From contig JAFGVU010000045.1 in the NCBI GenBank assembly GCA_016937855.1, forward strand, positions 2,045 through 66,044: a stretch of DNA of 64,000 nt, read 5' to 3'. The notes below the pieces were generated by a model. The model had not been told where the DNA came from. It was given only the letters and a program-made list of their open reading frames with translations, and did no database searches. A program made the translations under genes and the position numbers. Shown in pieces: positions 18,479 to 28,541 of the stretch; position 1 is the first letter of the stretch, and each line of letters opens with the position of its first letter. Source of the stretch: Bacteroidales bacterium. Its GTDB lineage: Bacteria > Bacteroidota > Bacteroidia > Bacteroidales > ML635J-15.

Positions 18479-19198
18479 TTATTTACTATTACATTTTATT
18501 TTTTTAAGTGCATTTTTCGATGCAATCTGCTCTGCTTCTTTCTTTGACCAACCCTTACCGCTTGCCACATATTGGCTATTAATACAAATTTCGCAAATAA
18601 AATGTTGGTTTTTTTCGTTAAGTTCAACGTTTTCGAATGTATCAATCAAAAGATCGAGTTTACACTTCTGAATATGTTGCAAAAGTCTTGATTTATAATC
18701 TGTATTCTGTGTAATGAGATTTGATAAGTCGAAATGTTTGTCAACTATTGATTTCAAAAATTTACCACAATAACTATATCCTCTATCATAAAAAATCGCT
18801 CCAACAATAGCTTCAAAAGAGTTCCCTCCCATGTTTTTCATTACATTCTGAGTCGAAGTTCTGTATTCCATTAGTCCAGGTATATCGAGGTCGCTAGCGA
18901 TTTTGTTTAATGTTTTTCGGTTTACGATTGTTGATCTGAGAATAGACAGTTTTCCCTCGTCAGCTTTTGGAAAATAAACAAATAAAATATCGCTTATAAT
19001 AGCATTCATTATGGCGTCACCAACAAACTCGAGTCGCTCATTATTGCTGTTTCTGTTGTTGTTTTTCCCAACAGCTGACGCATGTCTTAGGGCTTGTTTA
19101 TAATAAAACAAATCCCGAGGTTTAAACCCAAGGATTTGAATTAGTTTTTTTTGAAGTAATTTATCGGATTCTGATTTTTTACCGAAAAAAGAAAACAT
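18479..19198 (-). CDS. rnc: Ribonuclease III
   Basis: NERLEFVGDA signature; dsRBD SKKEAEQ. Confidence 0.95.
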   Translation of the reverse strand: MFSFFGKKSESDKLLQKKLIQILGFKPRDLFYYKQALRHASAVGKNNNRNSNNERLEFVGDAIMNAIISDILFVYFPKADEGKLSILRSTIVNRKTLNKIASDLDIPGLMEYRTSTQNVMKNMGGNSFEAIVGAIFYDRGYSYCGKFLKSIVDKHFDLSNLITQNTDYKSRLLQHIQKCKLDLLIDTFENVELNEKNQHFICEICINSQYVASGKGWSKKEAEQIASKNALKKIKCNSK

Positions 19199-19206
19199 TT
19201 GATACT

Positions 19207-20457
19207 TTATTCGTATTTTTTGAAAATAACTGATGTATTGTGTCCTCCAAATCCAAAAGTATTACTTAGAGCATATTTCACATCTCTTTTTTGTGCAGTA
19301 TGCAAAGTCAAGTTTAGTTTTGGATCAATTTCGGGATCTATTTGTTGGTGATTAATAGTTGGAGGAATAATGCTATCGTTTATTGCTTTGATGCAAAACA
19401 TTGCTTCCATAGCTCCGGCAGCACCTAATAAATGACCGACTATAGATTTAGTAGAACTTATATTTAAGTTATATGCATGTTCACCGAAAATTTCTTTAAT
19501 AGCAAAAAGCTCCGAAAGATCGCCACGAGGAGTTGCTGTACCATGAGCATTGATATAATCAATGTCTTCAGGTTTAATACCTGCATCAGCTAATGCGTTT
19601 CTCATAACAATTGCAGCACCACGTCCTTCAGGATGTGGAGCAGTAAGATGGTGTGCATCAGCAGACATACCAACACCTACAACTTCGGCGTAAATTTTTG
19701 CACCTCTGGCTTTTGCATGCTCATATTCTTCAAGGATCATTGCGGCACCGCCTTCACCCATAACAAATCCACTACGAGTTGCACAAAATGGTCTTGATGC
19801 AGTTTTATATTCTTCGTTATTTGCTGATATTGCCATCATAGATTGAAATCCACCCATGCCAATTTCGTTTATTGCAGCTTCGGAACCTCCGGTAACCATT
19901 GTATCGGCCATACCAAGACGAATGATATTAAAGGAATCGATAATTGCATTAGTTGAAGATGCACATGCAGAAACAGTACAATAATTTGGTCCCATCATAC
20001 CATATTTCATGGAAATGTGACCTGCTGCGATATCAGAAATGATTTTTGGAATGAAAAAAGGACTGAATCGAGGAGTGTAATCACCCTCGATATAGCCCTT
20101 AACTTCTTGATAAAAAGTTTCAACTCCACCAATACCCGATGCCCAAATTACACCCGTACGCTCTTTGTCAACAGATTCGAGGTCAAGACCTGAGTCTAAA
20201 ACAGCTTCGTCGGCTGCAATCAAAGCAAATTGTGTAAATCTGTCGATTTTCTTTGCTTCTTTACGATCGAAATACTGGTTGGGGTCATAGTTTTTTACTT
20301 CGCAAGCAAATCTTGTTTTAAACTTACTAGCATCATAGTGTGTTATCCAATCTATGCCGCTAACTCCGTTTTTTACGTTCTCCCAAGTTTCATCTGTGTT
20401 TGAACCAACGGGCGATAATGTGCCCAGACCGGTTACTACAACTCTTTTCAAAGTCAT
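19207..20457 (-). CDS. fabF: Beta-ketoacyl-ACP synthase II
   Basis: SACASS, HGTAT, GHLLGAAG, NTFGFGGHN. Confidence 0.97.
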   Translation of the reverse strand: MTLKRVVVTGLGTLSPVGSNTDETWENVKNGVSGIDWITHYDASKFKTRFACEVKNYDPNQYFDRKEAKKIDRFTQFALIAADEAVLDSGLDLESVDKERTGVIWASGIGGVETFYQEVKGYIEGDYTPRFSPFFIPKIISDIAAGHISMKYGMMGPNYCTVSACASSTNAIIDSFNIIRLGMADTMVTGGSEAAINEIGMGGFQSMMAISANNEEYKTASRPFCATRSGFVMGEGGAAMILEEYEHAKARGAKIYAEVVGVGMSADAHHLTAPHPEGRGAAIVMRNALADAGIKPEDIDYINAHGTATPRGDLSELFAIKEIFGEHAYNLNISSTKSIVGHLLGAAGAMEAMFCIKAINDSIIPPTINHQQIDPEIDPKLNLTLHTAQKRDVKYALSNTFGFGGHNTSVIFKKYE

Positions 20458-20484
20458 ACTAGTAAAGTTTAGTTAACAATAAAA

Positions 20485-20721
20485 TTACTTAACGTGTTCT
20501 TCCATGTAGCTTATCGCATCGCCTACGGTGCCGATTTTCTCAGCATCCTGATCTGAAATGGAAATCTCAAATTCTTTTTCAAATTCCATAATCAATTCAA
20601 CTGTGTCTAATGAGTCTGCTCCAAGATCATTTGTGAAACTTGCTTCTGGAGTTACTTCTGTTTCGTCAACACCTAGTTTATCAACGATAATACTTTTTAC
20701 TCTTGATGTAATGTCTGACAT
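20485..20721 (-). CDS. acpP: Acyl carrier protein
   Basis: [11 protein letters not shown]. Confidence 0.98.
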
Positions 20722-20873
20722 AATTAATAATTTTGAATTAATAAATTAATTACTTTTGCGGTGCAAATTAACGAAAATCATTTATTACAGTCAAAACTTT
20801 TAACAATATTTTTATCAACAATTTTTGTAAGTGTCTGATTTTCAACACTTAAGATGCAAAGAAATATCAGTTT

Positions 20874-21464
20874 ATGAAAAACACAGTCAATTTAGCCCTA
20901 TTTGCCTCAGGATCAGGCACTAACGTCGAAAACATAATTCATTATTTTAATGATTATTCAACAATTAATGTTTGCTGTATTCTATGCAATAACAGCAATG
21001 CAGGAGTTATTGAACGAGCTAATAGACTTGGTGTAGATATTTTGGTCTTTAATAGGGCAAATTTCTATGATTCGGACATCGTAATCGACTATTTACGTCA
21101 TAAAAACGTTGATTTAATTGTTCTTGCGGGATTTTTATGGCTCATTCCCGAAAAAATTATTGTATCGTATAATAATAAAATCATAAATATCCACCCTGCC
21201 TTATTGCCAAAATATGGTGGTAAAGGTATGTATGGAAATGCTGTCCATAAAGCTGTTTTTGAAAATAAAGATGAATATACGGGTATAACCATACATTATG
21301 TAAATAAAGACTACGACAAAGGAGATATTATTTTTCAGGAAAGCATTAAAATTGATGCGGAAGACAGCCCTGATTCTATTGCCGACAAGGTTCACAAGTT
21401 AGAATATACATATTATCCTACAATAATTAAAAAAATAGCAGTAAATTTGCAACATAACAATTGA
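20874..21464 (+). CDS. purN: Phosphoribosylglycinamide formyltransferase
   Basis: ASGSGTN, INIHPALLPKYGG, YDKGDII. Confidence 0.95.
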   Translation: MKNTVNLALFASGSGTNVENIIHYFNDYSTINVCCILCNNSNAGVIERANRLGVDILVFNRANFYDSDIVIDYLRHKNVDLIVLAGFLWLIPEKIIVSYNNKIINIHPALLPKYGGKGMYGNAVHKAVFENKDEYTGITIHYVNKDYDKGDIIFQESIKIDAEDSPDSIADKVHKLEYTYYPTIIKKIAVNLQHNN

Positions 21465-21529
21465 TTATTAACTGCAGAAGAATCTCAAAATTATAATCGA
21501 GATAAATATCTGCATCAAAATATTTACGT

Positions 21530-22573
21530 ATGATGAACATTTTTAAACAACTAATTGTATTTGGTTTATTATTAATAAGTATAAACTTGTTTTCTCAAAT
21601 CCCTGCAGGGTATTACGATAGTGCGGAAGGGCTTGAAGATGAACTGTTAAGACAAGCCTTACATAATATTATTGATGATCACGACCCTGTATCGTATGAT
21701 GATTTGTGGGATGTTTACGAGGACTCAGACAAACGAGCCGATGGTAAAGTTTGGGATATGTATTCTACATGTAATTTCAACTTTGGATCTGATCAATGTG
21801 GAAATTATCAAAATATTTGCGACTGTTTTAATCGCGAACACACAGTACCTCAAAGTTGGTTTAATGATGCCAGCCCTATGGTTACCGATGCCCATCATGT
21901 TGTTCCCACAGACGGCAAGGTTAATGGGTATAGATCAAATTGGCCATATGGAGAATGTACATCAGGGACCAGTTATGGTACAGGACGATTAGGCTCGTGC
22001 ACCTACCCGGGTTATAGCGGGACAGTTTTTGAACCTGATGATGAGTATAAAGGAGATTTTGCAAGAATTTACTTTTATATGGCTACTCGTTATATGGATG
22101 TAATGTCAAGCTGGCCCGGCGGAGCTTCGTTTAGCGGTAATAATTTTAGCGAATGGACAAGAAAAATGTTGCTTGATTGGCACCACGACGACCCCGTTTC
22201 ACCAAAGGAAGTTGCTCGCAATAACGCAGTATATTCGCATCAAGATAACAGAAATCCATTTATCGACAATCCAATATGGGCAGATGCTATTTGGGATCCG
22301 GACTACATGCCAAGTTTTACAGCAATTTCTGAATCATATTTTGCAGTTTATCCAAATCCGGCAAAAGATTTCCTAGAAATTAAACAAAATATTATTCTTC
22401 ACGGACAGTCTGTCGTAATTATGTCTGACGTAAGCGGTAGAGTAATTGTAGAATCAAAGTTAGAAAATAATTTACAAATAGATTTGTCGAAATTCCCTGA
22501 AGGCCTATACATTATTTCCATTATTAATAATGGAAAACAGGTCTATTGCAAAAAGATTAGTGTTATCAGATAG
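21530..22573 (+). CDS. Secreted endonuclease I family nuclease with T9SS type A C-terminal domain
   Basis: NREHTVPQSWF, VNGYRSN, KGDFARIYFY, RNPFID; C-terminal VYPNPA...GLYII. Confidence 0.9.
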   Translation: MMNIFKQLIVFGLLLISINLFSQIPAGYYDSAEGLEDELLRQALHNIIDDHDPVSYDDLWDVYEDSDKRADGKVWDMYSTCNFNFGSDQCGNYQNICDCFNREHTVPQSWFNDASPMVTDAHHVVPTDGKVNGYRSNWPYGECTSGTSYGTGRLGSCTYPGYSGTVFEPDDEYKGDFARIYFYMATRYMDVMSSWPGGASFSGNNFSEWTRKMLLDWHHDDPVSPKEVARNNAVYSHQDNRNPFIDNPIWADAIWDPDYMPSFTAISESYFAVYPNPAKDFLEIKQNIILHGQSVVIMSDVSGRVIVESKLENNLQIDLSKFPEGLYIISIINNGKQVYCKKISVIR

Positions 22574-22666
22574 TTCCTCTAATTCTCAGTTTGTGTACAA
22601 AAAGTATTAGGTTTCTACCTCACTAAACTTTTTTATTGTTTATACAACAATATTCTCCATTTTTTA

Positions 22667-22674
22667 TAAGTTTG
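22667..22674 (+). promoter_or_regulatory. -7 promoter element upstream of riboflavin synthase
   Basis: TAAGTTTG matches TAnnTTTG. Confidence 0.5.
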
Positions 22675-22700
22675 TAAATTAAATTTTAAAACTTAAAATT

Positions 22701-23312
22701 ATGTTTTCAGGTATAGTAGAAGAAACCGCAAAAATCGTAAAAATCGAGCAAGACAAAACAAATTTTCACTATTATCTTAACTGTTCGTTTGCCGACCAGT
22801 TAAAAATAGATCAAAGTGTTGCACATAACGGAGTTTGTCTCACGGTTGTTGATGTTGACAAAAACGAAAAAGTTTACAAAGTAACTGCTGTTCAGGAAAC
22901 ACTCGACAAGTCAAACCTGGGCTTACTAAATGTTGGCGATAAAGTAAACATCGAACGCAGTATGACAATGGACAAACTTCTCGATGGACACATGGTTCAA
23001 GGTCATGTTGATCAAACAGCTGTGTGCACTGAGATTAAAGAAGTGGACGGAAGCTGGTATTTTACTTTTCAATATGATAAATCGAAAGGAAATATTACTG
23101 TAGAAAAAGGATCTGTTTCTGTAAATGGTGTTAGTTTAACAGTGGTTAATTCCAGAGATGATAAATTCTCAGTAGCAATTATTCCTTTTACATACGATGT
23201 TACAAATTTTCATACCTTTAAATTAGGTAGCGTTGTAAATCTCGAATTCGATATTATTGGCAAATACATTCAAAAAATAATGGCTGGATATCTTGAGAAT
23301 TTGCAAAAATAA
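22701..23312 (+). CDS. ribE: Riboflavin synthase (alpha chain; RibE/RibC nomenclature varies)
   Basis: MFSGIVE, NGVCLTV, GHMVQGHVD, VNLEFD. Confidence 0.95.
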   Translation: MFSGIVEETAKIVKIEQDKTNFHYYLNCSFADQLKIDQSVAHNGVCLTVVDVDKNEKVYKVTAVQETLDKSNLGLLNVGDKVNIERSMTMDKLLDGHMVQGHVDQTAVCTEIKEVDGSWYFTFQYDKSKGNITVEKGSVSVNGVSLTVVNSRDDKFSVAIIPFTYDVTNFHTFKLGSVVNLEFDIIGKYIQKIMAGYLENLQK

Positions 23313-23540
23313 AATTCAAAAATTCAAAATCCAAAATTCTAAATCCTAAAATCTAAAACCTAAATTCAAAAATTCAAAATCCAAAATTCTAAATCCTAAA
23401 ATCTAAAACCTAAATTCAAAAATTCAAAATCCAAAATTCTAAACTCAAAACTATAAATTCTAAACTATAAACACTAAACACTCATAACTTTAGGCACTCA
23501 AGGCACTTTAAAAACTCAAAACTCTATACACTCATAACTA
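23312..23540 (+). repeat. Left tandem array of heptamer units (AAATTCA/AAATTCT/AAATCCT type) with exact 50-bp higher-order repeat, degrading into 7/9-mers
   Basis: 23312-23443 repeats exactly with period 50 (about 2.6 copies), then AAACTCA AAACTAT AAATTCT AAACTAT AAACACT AAACACT CATAACT TTAGGCACT CAAGGCACT. Confidence 0.95.
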
Positions 23541-23551
23541 AAAATATAAGA

Positions 23552-23932
23552 ATGGAATTTAACGAGCCAAATGTGATATATAACTTAGAAGAAAGGACAT
23601 TACAATTTGCGAAAAGAGTAAGGGCCTTTACAAAAAAACTTCCAAGGAGTATTGAAAATATTGAAGATATTAAGCAACTCACAAAAGCATCAGGCTCGCA
23701 AGGAGCAAACTATATAGAAGCAAATGAAAGCATAAGTAAAAAAGACTTTGTTTACAGAATAAAAATAAGCAGAAAAGAAGCAAAAGAAAGTGGTTTCTTC
23801 CTTAAACTAGTTGACACAAATAATGATGTTGAATTAGAAAATGAGAGGCAATCATTGATTCAGGAAGCAGTTGAATTAACAAAAATATTCGGTTCGATAG
23901 TTACTAAAACCGAACGAAATTTAATCCAATAA
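23552..23932 (+). CDS. Four helix bundle protein (23S rRNA intervening-sequence protein / Avd-like family)
   Basis: LEERT..FA, QLTKASGSQGANYIEA, SKKDFVYRIKISRKEAKES, ELTKIFGSI pattern typical of TIGR02436-like proteins. Confidence 0.9.
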   Translation: MEFNEPNVIYNLEERTLQFAKRVRAFTKKLPRSIENIEDIKQLTKASGSQGANYIEANESISKKDFVYRIKISRKEAKESGFFLKLVDTNNDVELENERQSLIQEAVELTKIFGSIVTKTERNLIQ

Positions 23933-23974
23933 CTTTAATCACAGAATGTCTGGAAAGTTTCACATAATTTTACA

Positions 23975-23982
23975 TACTTTTG
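23975..23982 (+). promoter_or_regulatory. -7 promoter element upstream of the flippase
   Basis: TACTTTTG matches TAnnTTTG; predicted start near 23988-23990. Confidence 0.45.
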
Positions 23983-23987
23983 ATTAT

Positions 23988-24020
23988 TGTTTAGAATTTT
24001 GAGTTTAGAATTTTGAATTT
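23988..24020 (-). repeat. Right heptamer array, inverted relative to the left array
   Basis: Reverse complement reads AAATTCA AAATTCT AAACTCA AAATTCT AAACA; 23997-24015 is a perfect 19-nt inverted copy of 23432-23450. Confidence 0.85.
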
Positions 24021-25332
24021 AAAAAAACATATTACCAACGTTAGAGCCCTGCAGTTCTTTCAGATATTTCGATTCGGAGTATTATTATTAATTAGTATTA
24101 TTTTTACTAAATCCGATTTGGGTATTGGTCAGATCGGAGTTTACGAAACTTTCTTATTAATTGCAGGTGCTGTTAGTTTCTTTTGGATTGGAGGAATGTT
24201 GCAATCGTTATTAAGTATATCAGAAAACAACAAGAGTTTTGGAACAGAAAAAAACTCTCCGGTTTTCTTTAATACCTTTTTACTATTTACGATTTTTAGC
24301 GCATTTGCGGCAATTGTAGTATATGTCATGCAGCCGGTTTTTGCCGACATGTTTAGCCTAAACGGACATCAAATACCTTACATGAAAATTTTATTCATGT
24401 ATATTATTGTCTCAGGCCCTGTAAATTTGATTGAGTATATCTATTTATTGCGGAATAAGAGTTTAAATATTCTATTATACGGCATATTAACATTTGGAGC
24501 TCAACTTTTTTGTGTAACCGTACCAATACTTTTAGGTTACGATCTTGGATACGGCCTATACGGACTGGTACTTATTAATATTATCCGATTTATCTGGCTA
24601 GTTATCATTGTTTTTAAATACTCTCGAATACAATTCTCCTTTGAGTACATAAAAGAATATTTAATATTATCGACACCATTGGTTTTAAGCATATTAATAA
24701 GTGGAAGCGCTCAATACATAGATAGCTTCATAATATCATACAAATACGACGAAGCAACTTTTGCTGTTTTCAGATACGGAGCAAGAGAACTCCCTTTTAT
24801 TGTATTACTCATATCTGCATTTGGAAATGCAATGACTCCCAGATTTTCGAACCCATCAAATATAAATTCTGCCAGTACTGAATTAAAAAGCGGGACAAAG
24901 CGCCTGATGCATTTTTTATTCCCAACATCTATCCTCTTTATTTTAACAAGTAAATACCTTTATCCTATAGTTTTTAGTCCGGAATTTGGCGAAAGTGCTA
25001 TAATATTTAACATCTATATTCTGATAGTTGTAACGCGGTTTGTCTTTGCCAGAATAATACTAATTGGCCTTAAAAAAACAAAAACCATATTTTATTCTTC
25101 GATAATAGAAATCGTTCTTAATGTTGCTTTAAGCTTATTGTTTATTCAGTATTGGGGAATAGCCGGAGTAGCATACGCAACAGTAGTTTCCTACATTATT
25201 GAAAAGCTATACCTTGTAATTGTTTTATCAAAAAAATACAAAATCGACTTAATACAATATTTAGACATAAAAGTTTATCTAATTTATTCAACAATTTTGA
25301 TTTTAGCATTTATTTTAAGCATATTTCTTTAA
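24013..25332 (+). CDS. Oligosaccharide flippase / MATE-like polysaccharide exporter
   Basis: About 12 TM segments, FAVFRYGARELP, WGIAGVAYAT; TTG start. Confidence 0.8.
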   Translation: MNLKKHITNVRALQFFQIFRFGVLLLISIIFTKSDLGIGQIGVYETFLLIAGAVSFFWIGGMLQSLLSISENNKSFGTEKNSPVFFNTFLLFTIFSAFAAIVVYVMQPVFADMFSLNGHQIPYMKILFMYIIVSGPVNLIEYIYLLRNKSLNILLYGILTFGAQLFCVTVPILLGYDLGYGLYGLVLINIIRFIWLVIIVFKYSRIQFSFEYIKEYLILSTPLVLSILISGSAQYIDSFIISYKYDEATFAVFRYGARELPFIVLLISAFGNAMTPRFSNPSNINSASTELKSGTKRLMHFLFPTSILFILTSKYLYPIVFSPEFGESAIIFNIYILIVVTRFVFARIILIGLKKTKTIFYSSIIEIVLNVALSLLFIQYWGIAGVAYATVVSYIIEKLYLVIVLSKKYKIDLIQYLDIKVYLIYSTILILAFILSIFL

Positions 25333-25341
25333 TATTCAGAG

Positions 25342-26922
25342 ATGGTTAATGTTATAATACAAGAGAACAAAACATTTACCTGGTTTAATTCAGGGAAATA
25401 CTATTTTATCGGTTACGTGTTTGATGATCATGACACACTGCTGATAGAGCAACAGGCTATTGATTATTTGACTAAATATCAACTTAACAAATCTATTGCC
25501 ATCGGCTTGTACACTCTAATTGAGATAAACGAAAAGGCTATCCACATTTTTACCGATTCAATTAATTATTTCCCGGTTTTCTATTATTTTGACTCAGGAA
25601 TTTGGGTATTAAGTAATAGTTTTGATAAAATAATTACGCATAAAGGAGAATTCAATCCAAATTCAGATGCAGAACAAGAATTTCTTATGGGAGGATTTGT
25701 CTTAGGATCTGAAAGCTTAGATAAAAGTATAAAAAGAACTCAAGCCGGAGAAAAACTAGTTCTCACTCCTGACGGCAAAATTCAAAAACATAATGTTTGG
25801 TTTTTCTCAGATTCTGATAAAAATGAAGCCAATTACTCTGAATTGATTACTGAAACAAAAACACAAATAGATAATTCTGCAAAAAGAATGATAAAATTCT
25901 TGAATGGCAGAACTGCAATTTTACCTCTAAGCGGTGGTTTCGACAGCCGACTAATTGCATGCATGCTAAAGCAAAATAACTATAATAACGTTATTTGTTT
26001 TACTTATGGACAATACAATGCCGAAGTTCCGATTAGTAAAAAAGTTGCCGAAATTCTTGAGTATAATTGGTATTTTATTGATTACAAAGATTTGGAAATA
26101 ACTAATTTTCAAAAAGAAAAAGATTTTATTCAATACTTTAGTAACGCCGGCAATGGTTTTGCAATGCCATATCTCCAAGAATACTTTGCTGTTAGAGAAT
26201 TAAAAAAACAAAATCTAATTCCTGAAGATTCTGTCTTTCTGCCTGGTCATTCAGGCGATTTTTTGGGAGGAAGCTACGTAAAAAAAACAGTAAAAACGAA
26301 AACATATATCGCTAACCTCTACAAACATATTTTAAAAAAATACTTTGTCTTTTTTAACCTAAAAAACTCCTATGTAATTGAACAGAGGATTAGTAATAAT
26401 TTAAAGGGATACGATTGTAAAACCGACCCACACATTCCTTATAAAACAATTATTGAAGATTGGGATGTAAAAGAGAAGTTATCTAAATTCATTTTCAATT
26501 CATCTCTCGTATTTAATTACTTTGGATATCAACATTATTTTCCTCTTTGGGATACTCAGTTGGTAAAACATTTCAGCTCCTTAGATTACAAATATCGTGA
26601 AAACAAAATGCTTTACGACGAAACACTTATATTGAATTATTTTAAACCATTTGGGGTTTATTTTGAATCTGATGAGTTGTCCGTATCCCGTTTTAAAAAA
26701 TCAATTCAAAAAACAAAAGATTTTTTGCGAAGACTTGTACCTTGGAAAATTGTTTATAAACGAATGTTAAAAACTGATTGGATTTATTATTCAGCTTTTT
26801 GTTCAGAATTGGAAAAAGAAATGATTTACAAAGGACAACCTAAAATAAAAAACTATAAATATTTTAATGCCGTAATATGTAAATATTACTTATTTTGGTT
26901 AGGTTTCTACAATAAAGACTAA
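25342..26922 (+). CDS. Asparagine synthase-related (PP-loop) protein, probably glycan amidation
   Basis: LPLSGGFDSR PP-loop, CFTYG, PGHSGDFLGG. Confidence 0.8.
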   Translation: MVNVIIQENKTFTWFNSGKYYFIGYVFDDHDTLLIEQQAIDYLTKYQLNKSIAIGLYTLIEINEKAIHIFTDSINYFPVFYYFDSGIWVLSNSFDKIITHKGEFNPNSDAEQEFLMGGFVLGSESLDKSIKRTQAGEKLVLTPDGKIQKHNVWFFSDSDKNEANYSELITETKTQIDNSAKRMIKFLNGRTAILPLSGGFDSRLIACMLKQNNYNNVICFTYGQYNAEVPISKKVAEILEYNWYFIDYKDLEITNFQKEKDFIQYFSNAGNGFAMPYLQEYFAVRELKKQNLIPEDSVFLPGHSGDFLGGSYVKKTVKTKTYIANLYKHILKKYFVFFNLKNSYVIEQRISNNLKGYDCKTDPHIPYKTIIEDWDVKEKLSKFIFNSSLVFNYFGYQHYFPLWDTQLVKHFSSLDYKYRENKMLYDETLILNYFKPFGVYFESDELSVSRFKKSIQKTKDFLRRLVPWKIVYKRMLKTDWIYYSAFCSELEKEMIYKGQPKIKNYKYFNAVICKYYLFWLGFYNKD

Positions 26923-28541
26923 TATACTTTACGGTCGGACATTAAGATATTTACTGCTGAATCCAGAGCAACATCATATTCGTTTGCAACTTCGTAAAAT
27001 GCATCATCTCCAAGAACCATTCGTGCAATATAAGCAACAACACCATTTTCAATATATTTTCCGGATATTGCTACATCAGAGGACTTTGCATTTATTCCTT
27101 GTAATGCTATAAACTGCCAAAATTTGCCATATACATTCCTAGTACTCAAGAACAATTTGAGCTCCTCGAGACTTTCGATTTCATCTAGCTCCGTCCTATG
27201 ATTATCTACATATTCTATGGCAAAATAGTACTCAAGATTTGCTCTTGATATGTTTGCATAAAGATTAGAGTATCCGATTGTGTCAATTGGAACAAAAACA
27301 TCTGGCATAATTCCGCCACCACCGTAAACAGCTCTGCCTTTATTAGTATAGTAAATAAGTGAATCTATTTGATGAATACTGTCTGCTTCCAAAAACTCGC
27401 CATGAGCATACCTATTATAGATGTCAGAATAATACTCATCAATGCCTTCGTCATACGACTTTTGAATGCACCTCCCCGAAGGAGTATAGTATCTGGCAGT
27501 TGTTAATCTAATAATTGAACCATCGTCAAAAGTGGTTGATTCTTGAACAAGTCCTTTTCCGTATGATCTTCTCCCTACCACAAAACCTCTGTCATTATCC
27601 TGAATTGCTCCGGCTACTATTTCGGAGGCAGAGGCAGAAAACTCATCAATCAATACTACGATATCTAAATCGAGACATGCACTTCTTTTCTTTGTAGAGC
27701 TTATTACATTTTTTGGTCGGGAGTTCCCCTCGGTATAAACCAAAGTCTTTCCACTTTCAAAAAACTCGTCTATAATATCAGTTGCAGAGTTAAGGTAACC
27801 TCCCGAGTTATTCCTCAAGTCAATAATTACCGACTCAATTCCTTTTCTTCGCATTTTAAAAACAGCATCAATAAACTGATTATGAGTGTTTCTTGAAAAT
27901 GTACTAATTTTGACATAGCCTATTTTCTCATCGATAATATAAAAACCATCGATACTTCTCAAAGGAATACTACCCCTAACCACATTATATTCAATCAAAT
28001 TGTCCTGGTCTTTTCTCTTAACCTTAAGCTTTACTTTTGTCCCCGAGGTACCTTTTAACATCGACATTACATCATTATTAGTTATGCCAATACCTGCAAT
28101 AATTGAGTCATTCACCATTACTATTCGGTCACCATCTTTTAATCCGTATTTTTCGGAAGGTCCACCAGGGATAACGCTAACTACTAAAACTGTATCTCGA
28201 AAAATATTAAACTGCACGCCTATTCCGCTAAATTCTCCTTGCAATTCTTCCTCAACAGCTTTTGCCTCATCGGCTGTAAAGTAAACAGTATGTGGATCAA
28301 GAGTTTCAAGAAACTTTGGGATAGCAATTTCTGCAAGATAATCTCTATCAACTTTATCAACATATTCGTTGGCAACATAATCGACAACCATATTTAACTT
28401 ATCTTTTGGAGGAGATATTAATATGCTTTTTGAGGTATTTCCCTTATTTAAAACTTCGGCAATTATAATTCCCAACACAATAGAAAAAGATATCACCAAA
28501 GGTAAAACGATGCTAAATCGAGTGTTTTTATATTTATTCAT
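26919..28541 (-). CDS. S41 family carboxyl-terminal processing protease with PDZ domain
   Basis: LDPH, GIGV, IDLRNNSGG, SASASEIVAGAIQD, GKGLVQ. Confidence 0.93.
   Translation of the reverse strand: MNKYKNTRFSIVLPLVISFSIVLGIIIAEVLNKGNTSKSILISPPKDKLNMVVDYVANEYVDKVDRDYLAEIAIPKFLETLDPHTVYFTADEAKAVEEELQGEFSGIGVQFNIFRDTVLVVSVIPGGPSEKYGLKDGDRIVMVNDSIIAGIGITNNDVMSMLKGTSGTKVKLKVKRKDQDNLIEYNVVRGSIPLRSIDGFYIIDEKIGYVKISTFSRNTHNQFIDAVFKMRRKGIESVIIDLRNNSGGYLNSATDIIDEFFESGKTLVYTEGNSRPKNVISSTKKRSACLDLDIVVLIDEFSASASEIVAGAIQDNDRGFVVGRRSYGKGLVQESTTFDDGSIIRLTTARYYTPSGRCIQKSYDEGIDEYYSDIYNRYAHGEFLEADSIHQIDSLIYYTNKGRAVYGGGGIMPDVFVPIDTIGYSNLYANISRANLEYYFAIEYVDNHRTELDEIESLEELKLFLSTRNVYGKFWQFIALQGINAKSSDVAISGKYIENGVVAYIARMVLGDDAFYEVANEYDVALDSAVNILMSDRKVY

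Follow-up and report, generated by a model that had tools for sequence, protein, structure and literature searches.

The closest described relatives of the element reported here are the protein-coding intervening sequences of 23S rRNA genes, of the type found in Leptospira, Coxiella and Azospirillum. They carry a gene of the PF05635 family between inverted terminal repeats made up of 7-mers in tandem (L093 below in Azospirillum; for Coxiella, heptamers described in passages of PMC4990558), and this gene is co-oriented with the host transcript and sporadic among relatives. These features are shared by a cassette of about 700 bp, made up of a PF05635 gene and two flanking repeat arrays (the arms), in a 64,000-nt stretch of DNA from a Bacteroidales bacterium (assembly GCA_016937855.1, contig JAFGVU010000045.1, positions 2,045 to 66,044), hereafter the window. 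The cassette differs from the rRNA elements in its host, which is the spacer between two protein genes, ribE and a flippase gene, and not helix 25 or 45, and in its arms, which are long, variable microsatellite arrays (~230 nt upstream); some copies of the family elsewhere have direct arrays. RNase III excision is known for the rRNA elements and is proposed for the cassette. The cassette can be described as an intervening-sequence-type element outside rRNA, with a putative mechanism.

REPIN/RAYT systems also resemble the cassette, since they combine a short single gene, typically flanked by repeats, with intergenic dispersal and with the presence of repeats and gene in the same genomes; the gene lies between its own dispersed repeats (passages of PMC3337134). 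The window protein differs in being a four-helix bundle that lacks the HUH and tyrosine motifs of transposases, and its repeats form tandem arrays whose unit is specific to each locus, in place of a single conserved palindrome. The arrays themselves are similar to the intergenic heptamer simple sequence repeats (SSRs), namely the short tandemly repeated repetitive (STRR) sequences of heterocystous cyanobacteria, TAACTGA of Beggiatoaceae, cyanobacteria and Bacteroidetes, and GGGAATC of Xanthomonas, which are tandem 7-nt units, often beside start or stop codons and variable in length among relatives. Inverted pairs of these SSRs have been noted in passages of PMC4679880 and PMC4692102; the same passages name no associated gene family, intervening sequence or four-helix-bundle protein, whereas the arrays of the window bracket a specific gene. 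No literature linking short-unit arrays to the PF05635 family was found in literature searches or in passages of these two papers, whose supplementary neighbour-gene tables might contain such cases. Finally, Avd of the diversity-generating retroelements has the fold of the window protein (4dwl and 8ub7, by Foldseek), but the window locus is without a reverse transcriptase among the ORFs (open reading frames) of 20000-28000 and without a template or variable repeat nearby.

A PF05635 gene between two complementary arrays

The riboflavin synthase gene ribE (22701..23312, + strand; Pfam Lum_binding, E 1.1e-45, in two stretches) is the upstream host gene, and directly after its stop codon comes the 5' arm, which is tandemly repeated and poor in G (23312..23545, + strand) (Tandem Repeats Finder and direct-repeat family D1). 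This arm is a 50-nt higher-order unit made of 7-mers. Tandem Repeats Finder reported the 50-nt unit in 2.6 copies with 100% matches at 23312-23443, composed of AAATTCA, AAATCCA and AAATTCT-type 7-mers, and a nested period-7 array at 23320-23464 (20.4 copies, 76% matches); beyond 23464 degenerate 7-mers (AAACTCA, AAACTAT, AAACACT) continue up to ~23545. The 239 nt upstream of the cassette ORF contain five G. The cassette gene (23552..23932, + strand) encodes a 126-aa protein, assigned by profile matches to the PF05635/TIGR02436 four-helix-bundle family, in which it represents a divergent subfamily. The 3' arm starts 57 nt past its stop codon and is an inverted array of GTTTAGAATTTTGA in 2.4 copies (23989..24021, + strand; period 14, 94% matches by Tandem Repeats Finder; inverted pairs I1-I15). 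It contains the TTG start codon (24013-24015) of the downstream host gene, which encodes a polysaccharide/MurJ-type flippase (24013..25332, + strand; Pfam Polysacc_synt_3 and MurJ). The cassette is thus flanked by ribE and the flippase gene and lies outside helix 25 and helix 45 of the 23S rRNA gene.

Pairing with the 3' arm involves 23427..23465 of the 5' arm (+ strand; inverted pairs I3, I4 and I6). Complementarity is perfect between 23432-23450 and 23997-24015 (19/19) and extends to 28 of 31 positions between 23427-23457 and 23990-24020. Both matches had been given in the original prediction, made from the letters of the window, and were exact on recomputation; the ribE stop, the ~230-bp array, the 126-aa gene and the inverted units after it were all found where it had placed them. 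It had also placed no transposase, integrase or reverse transcriptase next to the cassette, and none was present among the ORFs of 20000-28000. The heptamer units it described are those of the window locus and do not extend to the family as a whole, whose units are mostly of 7 or 8 nt and also of 4, 6, 9 and 10 nt. No Rfam family matched 22400-24200 at E<=1.

For the controls on arm complementarity the downstream piece ended at 24012, so that the target was a perfect match of 16 nt. This match was reached in 0 of 1000 shuffles (maximum 13) and, against the upstream array, by 0 of 1576 other 80-nt pieces of the window (maximum 13). The cassette gene also had the top inverted-flank score, 49, among 1288 control ORFs drawn from 40 sampled contigs >20 kb of its own genome (99th percentile, 30).

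Empty sites in congeners and array length between strains

A DNA search with ribE, cassette and flippase gene was performed in 30 relatives, and ribE was found in 17 of 18 congeners. The PF05635 gene was absent between ribE and the flippase gene in all ten congeners with both genes on one contig, nine of which have a spacer of ~26-55 nt according to hit coordinates. The spacer in genome G004 (L009, G004:C100) is a gene-less stretch of ~300 nt with three hairpins of TTTAGTG-type and CACAAAA/GCACGAAA-type units, and that of the closest congener (G017, ribE 81% identical) resembles a gene-less miniature of both arms. The right edge of the insert meets the TTG start of the flippase gene, and the empty sites show conservation of the first codons of this gene. 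Because the congener sites are empty, the repeats and the gene are one unit inserted into a short ribE-flippase spacer, as the original prediction had supposed; it had also proposed looking for an empty riboflavin synthase-flippase junction in relatives. No clear target-site duplication was seen at the junctions in comparison with the empty sites, and the repeats blur the edges. Relatives of the window gene were found at other loci in G017, G018, G049 and G029, and there, too, the 5' arm is poor in G and the 3' arm inverted.

The second cassette of the genome examined for empty sites is on contig C51, between maf and a peptidase gene. Apart from the genome of the window, this site is filled only in G009, and the two genes are adjacent without a cassette in at least 15 congeners. 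The congener spacers are plain in some cases, contain unrelated gene-less arrays in G017, G015 and G013, and carry a different gene in G039.

Cassette-less congeners (loci L011, L013 and L014) have a small hairpin in the ribE-flippase spacer, ATTCAA...TTGAAT, which also includes the flippase start codon; the 7-mer units of the 3' arm in the window resemble the arms of this hairpin.

Contigs from four public metagenome runs were aligned to the locus. An 8.7-kb contig from run X4 (94-98% identity) covers the locus from ribE through the gene and both arrays to the flippase gene. It is without 23321-23420 (two 50-nt units, with 11 other letters instead; 98 nt of the 5' arm are missing) and has 18 extra nt after 23500. 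Contigs from runs X3 and X6 contain the gene and the flippase gene at ~90-95% identity and are broken at the arrays. Compared with the window locus, these contigs indicate that the cassette is kept in the species-level lineage while array length changes.

Recurrence around PF05635 genes in the genome, genus and phylum

The original prediction had proposed a survey of the flanks of family members, and in this survey arrays were strongly enriched around members relative to neighbouring genes. The genus and phylum loci were the 30 best matches per search, not a random sample, and a flank score of 30 or more, inverted or direct, was counted as high. Six-frame hmmsearch detected four family members in the genome of the window. 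Inverted arrays flank three of them, and the unit is another one in each case (AAATTCT type in the window, GCATGGA type on contig C197 and GAGTTCG type on C51); the fourth, which is below the Pfam cut-off, has no flanking arrays.

The family was present in all 39 genomes of the genus, with 1-11 hits each. Nearly all of the 30 best loci had arrays on both sides, with a locus-specific unit and an equal period upstream and downstream. The commonest periods were 7 and 8, 8 being as common as 7, and periods 4, 6, 9 and 10 were found too, on which ground strictly heptameric units were rejected. Among 29 scored loci, ten reached 30 with inverted and ten with direct arrays (19 with either), compared to one of 40 neighbouring genes. 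About a third of the array-flanked genus copies have direct arrays, where the original prediction had inverted ones. At the level of the phylum, 234 of 301 sampled genomes contain the family; 11 of the 30 best loci scored 30 or more versus 1 of 48 neighbouring genes, with median inverted scores of 25 and 16, respectively.

Flanks scored against their own partner had a median of 30 (30/59 reach 30), and flanks with swapped partners a median of 17 (56/3422 reach 30), many of the high swapped-pair scores coming from orthologous loci. At orthologous loci the arms stay matched while the unit changes between genera (L063/L084 versus L067/L073/L075; L025, L032, L033, L035 and L042), which requires that the two arms change in concert. 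The polarity of the arms goes with the protein subfamily.

In the subfamily of the window (23312-23545; L047-L050) the 5' arm is poor in G and the 3' arm poor in C; for canonical members from Bacteroidota, cyanobacteria, Gemmatirosa and Azospirillum the polarity is mostly the opposite. At three loci (L055 in G340, L061 in G207 and L065 in G111) the cassette seemingly lies inside a larger reading frame, which runs through both arms. From inspection by eye, we take the split host genes to be methyltransferase-like in L061 and L065 and PglX-like in L055.

Copies in other phyla and in 23S rRNA

A tblastn search of plasmids with a canonical member gave 40 records, mostly from Nostocales and half of them (20/40) from Nostoc. 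Ten loci from this search were examined, and eight scored 30 or more. Anabaena sp. 90 has ~45 GGTGACAG units upstream of the gene and the inverse downstream, between cas6 and cas4. The gene is likewise bracketed by arrays between cas6 and cas4 in Pseudanabaena and between cmr2 and cmr3 in Picosynechococcus, and the same layout with G+C-rich units was found in Pseudanabaena, Picosynechococcus, Geminocystis, Stanieria, Leptolyngbya, Oscillatoria and Gemmatirosa (Gemmatimonadota). The cyanobacterial plasmid loci L085, L087 and L091 were those with cassettes between cas6/cas4 or cmr2/cmr3. Such copies may explain earlier reports of this family as "CRISPR-associated"; family genes inside cas loci were noted before, in passages of PMC3936711 that do not mention the repeats.

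In Azospirillum lipoferum (L093), one of the loci from this search, the family gene lies in a true 23S rRNA intervening sequence whose arms are four 7-mers (GAGGACG type) and their inverse. Passages of PMC4990558 describe two to three GACAGAT heptamers, variable among strains, before the S23p ORF of the Coxiella intervening sequence, and the excision of this sequence by RNase III. The likeness to 23S intervening sequences, which the original prediction had pointed out, is made much stronger by the inverted 7-mer arms in Azospirillum and by the Coxiella heptamers.

Orientation relative to neighbouring genes

Orientation was surveyed over 60 loci. The neighbour upstream had the direction of the cassette gene at 53 of 56 loci and the one downstream at 49 of 57; at 45 of 53 this applied to both. 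Median gaps were 78 nt upstream and 59 nt downstream. Since the neighbours are mostly co-directional, the cassettes are sense insertions within transcription units. A scan of 22500-24300 of the window gave no terminator-like site. A sigma-70 promoter scan gave 12 sites versus 8.0 ± 3.0 in shuffles, a scan that is uninformative for this phylum.

Arrays away from the gene and their co-occurrence with PF05635

About 54 period-7 arrays of at least 3.3 copies were found in the genome of the window after a complexity filter, many of them at contig ends. Among the 53 with a 7-nt consensus, 20 cluster with the unit type of the window and 17 with a GCATGGG type, which is found beside the C197 copy too. 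We considered whether each of the three copies with flanking arrays corresponds to one of the three array families of the genome; this pairing was suggestive and judged not significant. Six-frame hmmsearch for decayed gene copies beside the other arrays of the genome gave only the four known copies.

Array density was compared in 12 genomes, a small sample chosen for assembly quality. From each, 10 x 20 kb were taken, at fixed main-contig coordinates for ten complete or near-complete genomes and at positions 5001-25000 of contigs C1-C10 for G177 and G205. Five genomes with 11-13 PF05635 copies contained 10, 8, 6, 8 and 4 arrays of period 7-8 per 200 kb (36 per 1.0 Mb in total), and seven genomes with no PF05635 hit at E<=0.01 contained 0, 0, 1, 0, 1, 0 and 1 (3 per 1.4 Mb in total; Mann-Whitney p 0.0046, uncorrected for kinship). 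Of the 36 arrays, no more than two are next to a family gene, and the eight arrays sampled in G078 have eight different units.

A second gene family showed a similar distribution. GxxExxY (TIGR04256, PD-(D/E)XK-like, ~125 aa) was present in all five PF05635-positive genomes and in none of five negative genomes tested. Its loci (L209-L220, in G293, G078, G269, G089 and G113) are bracketed by inverted or direct short-unit repeats, and seven of the eight scored loci reach 30, the last four being unscored. No GxxExxY gene was found in the genome of the window.

The cassette protein

The window protein matched PF05635 with 42 bits (cut-off 33.8) and TIGR02436 with 61.6 bits (cut-off 24), and phmmer retrieved 2rld_A (E 5.9e-9), whose entry contains five chains. 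An AlphaFold2 model (pLDDT 90.9) has helices at residues 6-28, 34-58, 63-86 and 93-125, and according to this model the protein is an up-down four-helix bundle. The best Foldseek matches were 2rld, which is BT_0352 (TM-score 0.73-0.85), 2gsc, which is Xcc0516, and Avd (4dwl, 8ub7). Xcc0516 is a pentamer according to a passage of PMC4990558 citing Lin 2006.

The window protein is 15-25% identical to canonical members, 58-60% to the copies in three congeners and 43% to the C51 copy of its own genome. An alignment of 22 sequences (window numbering) has invariant positions at S49, E56 and E79 and nearly invariant ones at Q42, N53 and F66. The published family motif is GxxRxxxSxxxNxxE (passage of PMC3936711); as read from the alignment, its Ser, Asn and Glu positions are kept in the window protein and its Arg position is Lys in the subfamily. 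The Avd model was matched weakly by a canonical family member (31.6 bits) and not by the window protein. In the 95%-complete assembly the best RVT_1 match (E 5e-5) was below the cut-off and on a different contig. With no reverse transcriptase near the gene and no RVT_1 match above the cut-off, a role of the window protein as a retroelement accessory is unlikely.

Proposed mechanism and rival explanations

The reading we prefer, with a confidence close to even, is that the window contains one of a widespread kind of cassette, a PF05635 gene with two arrays, which behaves like the protein-coding intervening sequences of 23S rRNA and does so in an mRNA operon. A PF05635 gene bracketed by two arrays of one short (mostly 7-8 nt) unit was inserted into the ribE-flippase spacer. 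The cassette would probably be read through from ribE, given that it has the orientation of its neighbours and that the locus is without a terminator-like site. In the transcript the two arms, the 5' one poor in G and the 3' one poor in C, are predicted to pair in a long imperfect duplex that loops out the ~550-nt gene; this long-range stem is closed in both the minimum-free-energy and the centroid structures of 23300-24040. The predicted duplex covers the flippase start codon. By analogy with the rRNA intervening sequences, RNase III, which is encoded 4 kb away, would cut the duplex and free a small message. The original prediction, which had likewise suggested such a stem and, as a possibility, binding of the protein to its own repeats, is partly supported. 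On DNA the arms are hypermutable microsatellites, whose growth and shrinkage by slippage is seen in the array difference between strains, and the mismatch spectrum suggests that they are kept alike by recombination or template switching on DNA and not by selection on RNA pairs. Spread to new sites would most likely occur through homology between arrays, because no transposase is present. Cassettes may insulate or regulate neighbouring genes, the flippase start codon lying in an arm here.

Several results weigh against this reading. Direct arrays in place of inverted ones were found at 10 of the 29 genus loci scored and at 2 of the 30 from the phylum, and these copies are unable to close a stem around the gene. 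Scores fall below 30 at 10 of the 29 scored genus loci (L020 unscored) and at 19 of the 30 phylum loci; many of the low-scoring loci of both sets have short arms by eye. The fold energy of -105.8 kcal/mol corresponds to a modest z-score of -2.0, based on 20 shuffles, none of which folds as well, and the locus is in no RNA sequencing run listed. The arms of 41 inverted-arm alignments (1178 Watson-Crick pairs) contain 45 G·U-type and 54 A·C-type transitions (p 0.42), and 124 transversion mismatches, exceeding either transition class, so there is no G·U excess marking selection on sense-RNA pairing. Because of this, and in agreement with the direct-array copies, which are unable to pair, the process that keeps the arms alike probably acts on DNA. 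Like arrays without such a gene also occur at ~50 other places of the same genome; the arrays of the original prediction are not confined to family genes.

As an alternative, the protein and the arrays could form a partnership similar to that of RAYTs and REPINs, in which the protein ring acts in trans on arrays (binding, protecting, spreading or expanding them) and the RNA stem is a by-product. The array densities with and without PF05635 are in line with such a partnership, as are the 20 of 53 arrays of the genome that share the unit type of the window and the 17 that share the type flanking the C197 copy. The heptamer-rich genera Xanthomonas and Nostoc (passages of PMC4692102) hold the family: 2gsc is from Xanthomonas campestris, and half of the plasmid records are from Nostoc. 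Avd relatives, moreover, bind RNA and reverse transcriptase in solved complexes, according to the title of entry 8ub7. The units, however, differ from locus to locus within one genome (8/8 in G078), unlike the one REP family of each RAYT, no nuclease or transposase motif is known in the protein, and the match of the three copies of the genome to array families is statistically not significant. The density comparison can be read otherwise, since the 12 genomes were picked for assembly quality, the arrays could equally be the habitat that these genes need, and GxxExxY co-varies with them as well. On balance we consider this partnership possible and hold it tentatively.

A wider proposal, which is speculative, is that PF05635 proteins are the missing partner of 7-8-nt intergenic arrays (cyanobacterial STRR, Xanthomonas and Nostoc heptamers, and those of Bacteroidota), that gene and arrays propagate as a pair, and that the classical 23S intervening sequences are copies that landed in rRNA. 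If this were true, the ring protein would recognise or expand tandem units, with its own gene riding between two arrays. The over-representation of heptamers in bacteria and the function of the common S23/intervening sequence protein genes are two old open questions, and the locus and the survey link one to the other, arrays being frequent, among the sampled genomes, only in those with the family. Family genes are habitually bracketed by matching short-unit arrays, whether in operons, cas loci or rRNA; such cassettes break assemblies and can be mistaken for CRISPR-associated genes.

Arrays might instead be ordinary slippage-prone microsatellites or hairpins that arise unaided in the intergenic spacers of some lineages and serve as landing pads, with small selfish genes (PF05635, GxxExxY) gained and lost by homologous recombination between similar arrays and with no role for stem or protein at the arms. 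We consider this unlikely, although several results fit it. One and the same spacer contains unrelated gene-less arrays in congeners (the ribE site in L009; the C51 site in G017, G015 and G013) or another gene (G039), and the G017 spacer resembles a gene-less mini version of both arms. Genes within one direct array are common (L017, L019, L021, L028, L031, L039 and L045), the unrelated GxxExxY family has the same layout, and the mismatch spectrum of the arms is DNA-like. Landing pads leave unexplained the strong co-orientation with both neighbours, the same layout inside 23S rRNA, the complementary arms at orthologous loci despite the change of unit, and the arm base composition that tracks the protein subfamily. 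Chance likeness of two A/T-rich low-complexity spacers beside an ordinary gene, conceivable in a genome of 34% G+C with many A/T repeats, is highly improbable given the shuffles and window pieces, none of which attained the arm match, the first rank of the cassette gene for inverted flanks among the control ORFs, and the same layout with G+C-rich units in other phyla.

Further features of the locus and the genome

The RNase III gene to which the preferred, intervening-sequence-like reading refers is at 18497..19138 on the - strand (TIGR02191, 165.4 bits, just under the cut-off of 166.25), next to fabF and acpP and ~4 kb upstream of the cassette. A GGCACT-containing motif (TTAGGCACTCAAGGCACTTT) is located at 23490-23515, between array and gene, and its copy number differs in run X4; a similar motif seems, by eye and from short ORF translations, to recur beside A/T-rich arrays on C186 and C207.

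The genome also contains a multicopy non-coding element of ~350 nt, which is composed of a GCATGGG-type array, ~250 nt of conserved sequence and a CCCCATG-type array. It was seen at the ends of contigs C18, C55, C174, C243, C253, C33, C76, C94 and C232, with a compact copy at ~170-300 of C156, and no protein-family fragment was found within it. This element probably breaks the assembly. Gene-less inverted 7-mer arrays only tens of nt apart, or empty hairpins, are present at C131:4268-4330/4388-4581, C204:15986-16024/16063-16095 and C53:106700-106735/106752-106781, and very long solo arrays occur as well, for example at C171:3249-3553, C186:23423-23696 and C31:2937-3165.

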